A DNA stretch of 64,000 bases from an uncultured delta proteobacterium (GTDB lineage Bacteria > Desulfobacterota > Binatia > Binatales > Binataceae): NCBI GenBank assembly GCA_963794325.1, contig CAWCDG010000005.1:192001-256000 (forward strand), given 5' to 3'. The notes under the pieces are model-generated. The model saw nothing but the letters and a program-made list of their open reading frames with translations. It did not search any database and was not told where the DNA came from. The position numbers and the translations under genes are program-made. Below are positions 22,601-33,673 of the stretch, piece by piece (positions within the stretch are counted from its first letter, which is position 1; the number at the start of each line of letters is the position of its first letter).

Positions 22601-22662
22601 TATTGAGCCGCTTCCCCGGTGTGGAGAAGCGGCCCAGGCGCAGCCGCGAACGTTGCGCCATT

Positions 22663-22749
22663 GGCTTCCCTACGCCGGCATTACCCGGATCAGGTTCGAG
22701 GGGTTCTCCCGAGGGAGCTCTCAGTGCGTGTTATGCACACCCCCAGCCT
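22663..22749 (-). ncRNA. TPP riboswitch (THI element)
   Basis: Minus strand GCTGGGGGTGTGC...GCACTGAGAG...AACCCCTCGAACCTGATCCGGGTAATGCCGGCGTAGGGAAGC, upstream of thiSGE. Confidence 0.95.
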
Positions 22750-22757
22750 GCGATCCG

Positions 22758-22786
22758 ACTATACGACTCCCGCCGCGAACTGTCAA
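22758..22786 (-). promoter_or_regulatory. Sigma70 promoter of the thi operon
   Basis: TTGACA-17 nt-TATAGT immediately upstream of the riboswitch. Confidence 0.85.
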
Positions 22787-22795
22787 AAATCCGCT

Positions 22796-23355
22796 CTTCG
22801 CCTCTCCCGTCGGGAGAGGATTTAAGGAGAGGGACTTTATTCAGCGCGCGGCTTCGCGCGCGATTCAAGATTTTGGTTCCTTGCGTGCCTTGTGTTCTTC
22901 TCCGAAACTGCAAAATTCCCGCAATCATGCCCTCGTCCGAAGCATCTCACGAAACTGCGCGCAGACTACGCCGTGAGCAAACTCCTGGGGAGCAGGTCCT
23001 CTGGCGGCATTTGCGAACTAAACGCATGTGCAACGTGAAATTCCGCCGCCAACATCCTATCGGTCCGTACTTCGTCGACTTCTGCTCGATTCAACGAAAA
23101 TTGATCGTCGAGATCGATGGCGGACAGCACGCCGAACGATCCGCCGAAGATGAGGTTCGCAGCTCCTTTCTCAAATCGTACGGCTACCGCGTGCTGCGAT
23201 TTTGGAATCACCAGGTGTTGGAGAGCATCGACGAAGTGCTGGCTGAGATCGAGAAATTCCTGGGCGCAGATTCTTCAGAATCTTGAATCGCGCGCGATGA
23301 CGCGCGCTGAATAAGGTCCCTCTCCTTAAATCCTCTCCCGTCGGGAGAGGGGAAC
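22796..23355. mobile_element. Putative 560-bp mobile element: DUF559 endonuclease between ~77-bp terminal inverted repeats, flanked by a 10-bp direct repeat
   Basis: 22796-22872 vs reverse complement of 23279-23355: 6 mismatches in 77; AAAATCCGCT at 22786-22795 and 23356-23365 abuts both ends. Confidence 0.7.
22927..23286 (+). CDS. DUF559 (Vsr-like) endonuclease domain protein
   Basis: ARRLRREQTPGEQVLW, KFRRQHPIGPYFVDF, LIVEIDGGQH, GYRVLRFWN; 119 aa. Confidence 0.92.
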   Translation: MPSSEASHETARRLRREQTPGEQVLWRHLRTKRMCNVKFRRQHPIGPYFVDFCSIQRKLIVEIDGGQHAERSAEDEVRSSFLKSYGYRVLRFWNHQVLESIDEVLAEIEKFLGADSSES

Positions 23356-23457
23356 AAAATCCGCTGCTATGCTTGAGGCTTTGTGGGTGTCGGAATGGCG
23401 GACTCGAGTGCCACTATGCTAATCCGAAATCGATCCCAGGACCTGACAGGAGCCGCT

Positions 23458-32635: not shown

Positions 32636-33673
32636 CTACCTGCCTGACTTCAGCACCGGCAAAACCTCTTTGGTGAACAATCCGAGGGCTTGCATCTGGT
32701 CGGAGGGCGCTACGTCAGCACCGGGTCCAACGACGATCAAATGATCGAGGCCAAGTTTCAGCAACTCCTCGAAGCGCCTGATGCAATGATCTGGAGCGCC
32801 TGCGATGGCGAACCGATCGACGAATGCGTCGTCGAGGAATTGCGCGTGACCGGCGTCTCCGCGCGCGTGGCGGGACATATCGTAGGTCTCACCAATCTTC
32901 TGCGCGACCGCGCGGTCCGCGGGACGCATCCCCTCCGTGGCACTGCCCGACATCCCGGAGAAGTGGGCGATCGTGCCAACGGTTCCGCGCGACATCGCAC
33001 GCGCACGCGCGACATCGCGATCCACTACCACATTTAGAAAGGCGCCGAGCTTCAGCGTCGAAGGATCCAGTCCAGCCTGCTTCCGCGCCTGCCGCGCGTG
33101 ATCGGCAGCCCAGGCAATGCGTTCCGGATCGGCGCCCACCGCAAAGCTTAGTGAATCGGCGAGCGTAGCGCCGACCTCGATCACGCGAGGCCCGGTAGCG
33201 GCGACATCTACCGGCACCTTGGGCAGACCACCGCGCGCGATCCACTCATTACGGCTCTGGAAGCCGTTGTCGAGCGTGACCTGCTCGCCACGGAGGAAGC
33301 CTTGCACTTGCGAAATGTAGCGCGCGAAATTTTTGCTCGACGGCGCGCGCTCACCAATCTTGGCGACGGCGGAATCACCGCGGCCGATTCCGAGTACCGC
33401 ACGGCCGCCGGACTCCGCCTGCACGGTTGCGATCGCGGAAGCGGTCACCGCTGGATGACGAGTGACCGGATTCGTCACCGCGGTGCGCAGCTTCAGATGC
33501 CTGGTAGCGTGAGCCGCGAGACACAATTCCGAGTATGGATCCGCCGCAAGATTTTGAGTGTCGACAATCCCGATACCATCGAAGCCGCTTTCCTCGACCA
33601 TCCGCGCCATCTGCACAAAAGCTCCGGGAATCGGAAAGGTAATCATCCATATCTCAGGGCTGCTCTTAGTCAT
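32636..33673 (-). CDS. LLM-class flavin (possibly F420)-dependent oxidoreductase
   Basis: VTNPVTRHPAVTASAIATV, GRAVLGIGRGDS, VAATGPR. Confidence 0.88.
   Translation of the reverse strand: MTKSSPEIWMITFPIPGAFVQMARMVEESGFDGIGIVDTQNLAADPYSELCLAAHATRHLKLRTAVTNPVTRHPAVTASAIATVQAESGGRAVLGIGRGDSAVAKIGERAPSSKNFARYISQVQGFLRGEQVTLDNGFQSRNEWIARGGLPKVPVDVAATGPRVIEVGATLADSLSFAVGADPERIAWAADHARQARKQAGLDPSTLKLGAFLNVVVDRDVARARAMSRGTVGTIAHFSGMSGSATEGMRPADRAVAQKIGETYDMSRHARGDAGHAQFLDDAFVDRFAIAGAPDHCIRRFEELLKLGLDHLIVVGPGADVAPSDQMQALGLFTKEVLPVLKSGR

Follow-up and report, generated by a model that had tools for sequence, protein, structure and literature searches.

The stretch of DNA analysed here (the window) spans 64,000 nucleotides from a genome of the family Binataceae (positions 192,001 to 256,000 of contig CAWCDG010000005.1), and this report concerns a small cassette within it, which carries a single gene for a DUF559 nuclease bracketed by two oppositely oriented copies of a dispersed repeat of that genome. 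The cassette sits between the thiS-thiG operon, whose open reading frames downstream of a thiamine pyrophosphate (TPP) riboswitch match the ThiS and ThiG Pfam families, and, on its other side, a PhyH-family gene. The genome of the window (G000, 4.45 Mb) holds a second full cassette; below, C5 denotes the window's copy and C6 the second one. The features of the locus are:

22795..22875, + strand: left arm, one ~80-nt unit of the dispersed repeat with its pyrimidine arm outermost, delimited by inverted-repeat search, genome matches and unit alignments
22801..22833, + strand: triplex-type core of the left arm (pyrimidine arm, 3-nt loop, purine arm, 6-nt spacer, mirrored purine run)
22844..22862, + strand: second hairpin of the unit, GC-only, predicted from the DNA fold and an alignment of 16 units, with almost invariant stems and a variable loop
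22876..22926, + strand: 51-nt leader from the left arm to the ATG, 80.4% identical between the C5 and C6 copies, which is below the arms
22927..23286, + strand: gene for a DUF559 (Vsr-like PD-(D/E)xK) nuclease of 119 aa, its stop codon inside the right arm
23276..23355, - strand: right arm, an inverted copy of the left-arm unit
23318..23350, - strand: triplex-type core of the right arm, located by pattern search
22786..22795, + strand: left copy of AAAATCCGCT, its last base reading as the first base of the repeat unit, whose consensus begins TCTTCC
23356..23409, + strand: tail that opens with the right copy of AAAATCCGCT (23356-23365), delimited by the alignment of C5 and C6
22758..22786, - strand: promoter-like site of the thi operon, TTGACA-17-TATAGT, with 11/12 consensus positions, upstream of the TPP riboswitch
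22650..22754, - strand: TPP riboswitch of the thiS-thiG operon (RF00059, 78.2 bits against a gathering score of 54.3), outside the element and given for context

The inverted arms, the exact 10-mer and the DUF559 gene are real and beyond chance. Paired as 22797-22875 and 23276-23354, the arms are 79 nt long, 92% complementary and 400 nt apart; an earlier reading made from the letters alone (the sequence-only reading) had recognised these long terminal inverted repeats and put their length at 77 bp. The pattern CCTCTCCC-N3-GGGAGAGG-ATTTAA-GGAGAGGG occurred twice in the window, once per arm, and in none of 100 shuffles, and the left arm as single-stranded DNA was predicted to fold into the motif hairpin plus the GC hairpin (-19.8 kcal/mol, z -3.66, equalled by 0/200 shuffles). 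These results uphold the hairpin with mirror repeat and the additional GC hairpin that had been described for each arm. The exact AAAATCCGCT abutting both ends was also found as described, at 22786-22795 and 23356-23365, as was the flush position of the element against the -35 box of the thi promoter, since the promoter-like site runs from 22786 to 22758 on the minus strand and the element abuts its -35 hexamer. A search for promoter-like sites called none in the leader, and beyond the TPP riboswitch an Rfam scan returned one sub-threshold match, to the right-arm hairpin (17.3 vs 38.3 bits), which we take as chance. Among 72,556 plasmid records, there was no DNA match to the element.

The DUF559 frame is the only family-assignable open reading frame of the element (PF04480, E 5.1e-42, 142.6 bits vs a cut-off of 20.6, profile positions 4-108 of 109), and a Pfam scan found no transposase of a known family inside it. 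Residues D51, E62, D64, G65 and H68 are invariant across six paralogues, and the D...ExDGxxH motif, which we take to be catalytic by analogy with Vsr, is intact; this upholds the earlier description of this 119-aa protein as the sole recognisable gene product. The nearest solved relative is the DUF559 protein PDB 3HRL (E 1.2e-29, residues 20-112), with which the catalytic motif aligns, and the window protein probably adopts a Vsr-type fold. A further match in the frame, to REase_MTES_1575, was sub-threshold, and PADLOC returned two weak matches of 17 and 18.8 bits, the latter labelled 'homing endonuclease'. The gene is under purifying selection, with ratios of nonsynonymous to synonymous divergence (dN/dS) of 0.07-0.23 in nine gene pairs. 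The C5 and C6 copies differ at 40% of synonymous sites and are 80% identical in the leader but 94% identical in the arms, which suggests that the arms are constrained or are homogenised by conversion among units. A recent origin of C5 as a copy of C6 was ruled out by their synonymous divergence (dS 0.56); the C6 gene is closer to a copy at another locus of the relative G003 (dS 0.27).

The sequence-only reading had taken the two flanking 10-mers for a target-site duplication and had predicted an empty site with one repeat copy in relatives. Empty sites were found: the segment from 22795 to ~23409 is absent from the thi-PhyH spacer in 7/7 relatives read, homology resuming at ~23410-23455, and the thi-side flank is conserved in relatives up to 22789-22794. 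In these element-free genomes, however, the left 10-mer is native promoter-side sequence except for its final base (the site reads AAAAATCCGC in G011, AAAATCCGCC in G003 and AAAAATCCGA in G021), and the right 10-mer belongs to an insertion-linked tail of ~54 nt that is common to the C6 paralogue (~75% by eye). At C6 the insertion includes the tail, but the orthologous copy in G049 is without it; we considered the tail as a separate dispersed repeat and rejected that idea because it occurs at C5 and C6 only. An abutting direct repeat is present in 1/9 two-armed copies, that of the window alone, and comparison of filled with empty sites at two other loci revealed no duplication and extra non-arm junction bases of variable length. 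Because the left copy is native, the right copy lies in the C6-shared tail and eight of the nine copies lack the repeat, the 10-mer is not a regular target-site duplication, and flanking duplications are likewise missing from the other eight two-armed copies. Its origin may lie in microhomology or in a carried-over donor flank. Taken together, positions 22795-23355 with the 54-nt tail to ~23409 are best explained as a lineage-specific insertion of a small cassette.

Insertion polymorphism extends across the genus. Of 47 genus genomes (a tally that includes the unpublished G019 and G024), 44 matched, G000 included, and in none of the other 43 does the match run on from the thi flank into element sequence. 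The layout of arm, gene and inverted arm is kept in 10/15 copies within the genus, and the number of full cassettes per genome ranges from none among the matches listed to at least six in G053. At the C6 site, G000 and G049 have the insertion and 10 genomes read do not; the insert consists of a 30-39-nt head, arm-gene-arm and 8-63 further bases, with no duplication. Between convergent genes at C3:74064-74160, nine genomes read are empty (spacer of 0-15 bp), G000, G055, G003 and G049 hold a solo unit, and G013 holds a full cassette, whose gene is 68% identical to the other copy in that genome. At C3:96584-96817, a short spacer occupied by a window-family cassette in seven relatives, G000 holds a ~234-bp doublet of a different DUF559-associated family, and G052 and G045 have copies of the window's family with internal deletions. 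These comparisons of empty and filled sites bear out the earlier view of a discrete, insertion-polymorphic unit. The thi-PhyH spacer itself (L052-L058) is an insertion hot spot: its contents are unrelated from species to species, and within the genus its length ranges between 65 bp and ~2.3 kb, with short, element-free versions in G013, G007 and G053. In G053, two cassettes of the window's family stand head to tail ~85 bp apart (G053:C20:32370-32931 and 33016-33545).

Within G000, the left arm had 33 matches: four from the paired arms of the two full cassettes, and 29 elsewhere, mostly single units. The second cassette (C6:9127-9700) shows 88% DNA and 86% protein identity to that of the window, and in 16 aligned units the stems are nearly invariant and the loops variable. 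DUF559 has nine matches in this genome, and four of five other DUF559 loci tested have inverted arms (136, 42+31, 48 and 47 nt), which belong to separate dispersed families. One of these families comprises 21 doublets of ~230 bp that resemble miniature inverted-repeat transposable elements (MITEs) and are without target duplications; we rejected the idea that they are internal-deletion derivatives of their gene-carrying relative because they have the arms alone in common with it. Another family has ~245 sites with 37 exact 39-nt cores. At C4:950517-951006 (L037), a frameshift has broken a DUF559 gene into two fragments (one TGA), which lie between 47-nt arms that are 100% complementary; the genome has 37 exact occurrences of the arm's 39-nt core, a sign that it spread recently or is strongly homogenised. 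In the fifth locus tested, at C3:232648-232959 (L031), a DUF559 domain lies in a 694-codon open frame together with tilS-like (lysidine synthetase-like) sequence and has no flanking inverted repeat; its C-terminal extension resembles the translation of a motif hairpin. At C2:612861-615677 (L156), a Schlafen AlbA_2 protein and an IS110-family transposase (DEDD_Tnp_IS110, Transposase_20) are encoded between inverted units 2.8 kb apart, and this locus may represent an IS110 insertion into a repeat doublet.

We surveyed DUF559 loci from genome contigs of Proteobacteria, Chloroflexi, Planctomycetes, Rokubacteria, Binataceae and others, of which 76/80 were evaluated and four with short flanks were left out. 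A flanking inverted repeat scoring at least 18 was present at 53/76 loci and one scoring at least 22 at 45/76, compared with 0/142 shifted windows in the same loci, 0/600 random G000 windows and 0/76 shuffles. Direct-orientation matching, in which 30/76 loci scored at least 22, was rejected as a null because hairpin units match in both orientations. Pyrimidine/purine hairpins stood on both sides of the gene at 60/76 loci, and by a loose pattern the full motif faced outward on both sides at 45/76. A core common to the arms reads CCCTCTCCC-loop-GGGAGAGGG-N-GGGTGAGGG, and in most cases the right arm extends over the stop codon. In the distant genomes G063 and G064, the DUF559 arms are again dispersed repeats with several further sites each. 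We conclude that, in many phyla, short DUF559 genes as a rule lie between inverted motifs. The idea that DUF559 loci carry terminal inverted repeats is therefore supported against the controls, but the arms are copies of dispersed repeats rather than private termini.

Judged by its sequence pattern, the arm core is of a known type, the 'intrastrand triplex motif' (TMECO), or BoxC. A C-rich stem, loop, G-rich stem, loop and mirrored G-rich stem of the TMECO type was found at 22801-22833 (+) and 23318-23350 (-); the strict published pattern, CCCTCNCCC N3-6 GGGNGAGGG N3 GGGNGAGGG, does not occur in the window because the stems there are 8 nt and the second loop 6 nt long. The strict pattern does occur beside E. 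coli ycjD, and by eye the arms of many other loci look like it. A DNA fold of the window arm predicts two hairpins only. According to the accessible text of Holder et al. (2015; PMC4666352), the motif has 3610 copies in 262 proteobacterial genomes and forms a triplex in vitro; it is intergenic and multi-copy, often lies in inverted pairs and is tied to local rearrangement and instability, and that text assigns it 'no specific function' and states that transposases and integrases were never found nearby. Our literature search, which covered non-subscription sources, found no report tying the TMECO/BoxC motif to DUF559 or YcjD. The nearest hint is a 14-fold enrichment of 'DUF559 domain-containing protein' among predicted programmed-inversion targets (PMC9881135, accessible part).

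Motif abundance goes with the gene across genomes. We counted motif hairpins in 121 genomes of the family around G063 (a record titled Novosphingobium), with a strong DUF559 hit defined as E 1e-30 or better. Genomes with a strong hit (66) had a median of 24 hairpins and 51 of them had at least 10; those with a weak hit (41) had a median of 2, with at least 10 in 7, and those with none (14) likewise had a median of 2, with at least 10 in 2. Motif counts thus tracked DUF559 across the 121 genomes (Spearman 0.65, a statistic that ignores kinship). Among E. coli chromosomes, K-12 and 55989, which encode ycjD, contain 23 and 29 motifs, respectively, and three that lack ycjD and any DUF559 contain 1 (IHE3034), 2 (CFT073) and 11 (Sakai). 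In K-12, a degenerate motif lies over the ycjD stop codon, and a full motif, one of the 23, lies 168 bp downstream. Between ycjD and this nearest TMECO motif is a duplicated 3'-end fragment of ycjD (NC_000913.3 1351205-1351407, L153), which is a sign of past rearrangement at the locus. In other E. coli phylogroups, eefRABCD occupies the ycjD site, as stated in the accessible part of PMC12817139.

From the anatomy, dispersal, insertion polymorphism, purifying selection and co-occurrence that we observed, we favour, on a judgement only somewhat better than even, a nuclease-repeat partnership that works like the pairing of repetitive extragenic palindromic (REP) sequence doublets (REPINs) with REP-associated tyrosine transposases (RAYTs) and is built on an unrelated Vsr-like nuclease. 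Its targets would be the motifs at the two ends, in folded or duplex form, where it would nick; host replication or repair would then copy the motif-bounded DNA as solo units, doublets or gene-carrying cassettes, and the copies would land between genes at new sites, leaving no fixed target duplication. Repair-mediated copying is compatible with the tail that was carried over and with junctions that are untidy and lack duplications. We advance more tentatively, and at somewhat less than even confidence, that short DUF559/YcjD proteins are the missing mobilising enzymes of BoxC/intrastrand-triplex repeats, which occur in hundreds of bacterial genomes, and hence that a second, independent lifestyle of the RAYT-REPIN type exists in which a nuclease reads a triplex-forming structure and host repair does the rest. 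The sequence-only reading had proposed a possibly undescribed system in which a small nuclease acts on structured ends, and that proposal gains strong comparative support, although the core of the motif had already been described as TMECO/BoxC.

Several observations weigh against the nuclease-repeat partnership. We infer the binding or cutting of the motif by DUF559 and every chemical step, and a hydrolytic nuclease is unable to join DNA by itself, so that joining must fall to host repair or replication. In the survey, 23/76 loci scored below 18. The junctions (30-39 extra bases at one end, 8-63 at the other) also fit plain recombination, gene conversion among units could account for the conservation of the arms, and the 21 doublets share arms alone with their gene-carrying relative. 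Many copies are syntenic across several species (3 genomes at one locus, 7 at another), which indicates that most of their history has been vertical. Motifs also persist without the gene, as in Sakai and in G122, which has 81 hairpins and no DUF559 hit; a 36-nt variant of the motif is present in 5137/5426 E. coli genomes vs 3378 with ycjD, for which reason we rejected a strict presence/absence link in that species. The genome counts ignore relatedness, and each gene itself adds two motifs. Finally, the sole functional study of a DUF559 protein, as far as its accessible text goes, reads the Caulobacter protein VsrA as a mismatch-repair enzyme. In favour of the partnership, the same study, which reports the sole in vivo data on a DUF559 protein, found that VsrA causes DNA damage in vivo (PMC12907096).

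Among the alternatives, we regard homing alone as unlikely. Here the nuclease would cut gene-less units, and repair from a gene-bearing copy would write the gene and a second inverted unit into the site, the repeats having been scattered in some other way. The orthologous site at C3 fits this scheme, holding a solo unit in left-arm orientation in G000 and others and a full cassette in G013, and so does the donor-side tail carried over in C5, C6 and partly L061, which would reflect one-sided copying that overran the arm; Vsr-like homing endonucleases are known (PMC3424549, accessible part), and the 18.8-bit PADLOC match carries that label. However, homing leaves new solo units and doublets in formerly empty spacers unexplained, the thi and C6 sites hold no unit in the relatives read, and the change at the G013 site could have run either way, solo to full or full to solo; the 68% identity of its gene to the other G013 copy indicates that there was no recent donor within that genome. 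Nor do the cassettes resemble homing endonuclease genes, which have their own site in a conserved gene, intron or intein and precise junctions, since the cassettes are intergenic with 8-63 extra junction bases. We consider it improbable that DUF559 is instead a passenger, a cargo gene with a host role in repair or defence carried by MITE- or REP-like units that an unrelated transposase moves in trans. The inverted units around the IS110-family transposase and AlbA_2 protein would suit this explanation, as would the two Y1 transposase genes of G000, and IS110 elements are not known to make target duplications. Yet the IS110 gene is single-copy in G000, the Y1 genes carry their own unrelated repeats, five arm families in G000 and the 53/76 loci elsewhere enclose DUF559 and not any transposase, and motif counts track DUF559 in both the 121 genomes and the five E. 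coli chromosomes; the absence of transposases and integrases near the motifs in the accessible text of Holder et al. (PMC4666352) also counts against it. Mobilisation in trans by another transposase, the main alternative of the sequence-only reading, is thereby weakened.

We consider a purely housekeeping role highly unlikely, in which DUF559 is a Vsr-type enzyme for mismatch or structure repair and the inverted motifs are regulatory elements, terminators or a switch that inverts the gene. Such a role agrees with the accessible account of Caulobacter VsrA as a very-short-patch repair enzyme linked to a cytosine methylase (PMC12907096), with the enrichment among predicted inversion targets (PMC9881135), with the overlap of right arm and stop codon and with the synteny of many copies, but it does not explain hundreds of dispersed arm copies, swings in copy number between sister species or insertions into empty spacers, and no inversion joint was seen in four soil-metagenome runs, of which contigs only were searched. 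The reading of the element as a classical cut-and-paste transposon with a 10-bp target-site duplication is largely refuted, and we give it almost no credence. An exact 10-mer does abut both arms, and even an abutting repeat of 8 nt is unlikely by chance; the flanking repeat is nevertheless confined to 1/9 copies, its right copy is shared with the C6 paralogue, the C6 and solo-unit sites show no duplication, and the element has no known transposase domain.

The REPIN-RAYT systems, like the cassette, place a single small enzyme gene between two inverted hairpin-bearing repeats whose copies are scattered over intergenic DNA, make no target duplications, are often vertical at their loci and show a repeat abundance tied to the gene. 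In the window, as in G063 and G064, the repeat that flanks the gene in inverted orientation is indeed one dispersed through that genome, and repeat abundance goes with the gene across genomes when kinship is ignored, G122 and Sakai being exceptions. The cassette differs in that its enzyme is a PD-(D/E)xK Vsr-like nuclease rather than an HUH/Y1 transposase (PF01797), its repeat is a pyrimidine/purine triplex-type motif rather than a GTAG-headed REP, and a hydrolytic nuclease is without the covalent cut-and-join chemistry of RAYTs. G000 also contains two RAYT-like Y1 (PF01797) genes (C4:286943-287218 and C4:486520-486717) with their own repeats, unrelated to the DUF559 arms (71 and 111 BLAST matches, one family GTAG-headed), which indicates that classical REPIN-RAYT systems coexist with the DUF559 families. 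With TMECO/BoxC the arms share the architecture of the core and, in many related loci, its sequence; the motif as published, in the accessible text, has no associated protein or mobility function (PMC4666352), whereas here it brackets a DUF559 gene. E. coli Vsr and I-Bth0305I (PDB 3R3P) belong to the same nuclease clade as DUF559 in a PD-(D/E)xK survey (PMC3424549, accessible part). Vsr-like homing endonucleases thus set a precedent for a selfish, site-targeted nuclease; unlike them and Vsr, the cassette has no intron, intein, host-gene target or adjacent methylase and sits between dispersed intergenic repeats. Insertion sequences and their MITE derivatives resemble the cassette in their terminal inverted repeats and in gene-less short copies with the same ends (the 21 doublets of one G000 family), but in the cassette there is no known transposase and no target duplication, solo ends are common, and the doublets share arms alone.

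DUF559 is a very widespread domain of unknown function, and linking it with BoxC/triplex repeats gives each a testable role, including in E. coli K-12. The nuclease-repeat pairing may account for the spread of a class of bacterial repeats that has long been puzzling. If the nuclease does drive the repeats, this would be a new way for bacterial DNA to spread and a class of mobile element without a known transposase fold, and it would explain the local instability reported at the motifs. For annotation, inverted-repeat pairs around DUF559 genes need not be programmed inversion switches.

Additional observations concern the repeats and the organism. Among the public sequencing runs listed for the organism, none was an RNA run. 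A short repeat, TGTGTCATTCAGAGCGAAGCGAAGAATCCCGGATCCT, and variants of it abut the outer end of several units (e.g., C4:1248083, C3:111074, C2:612861 and C4:204261), and different repeat families cluster within shared spacers. The best matches to the organism among public sequencing runs were soil metagenomes.

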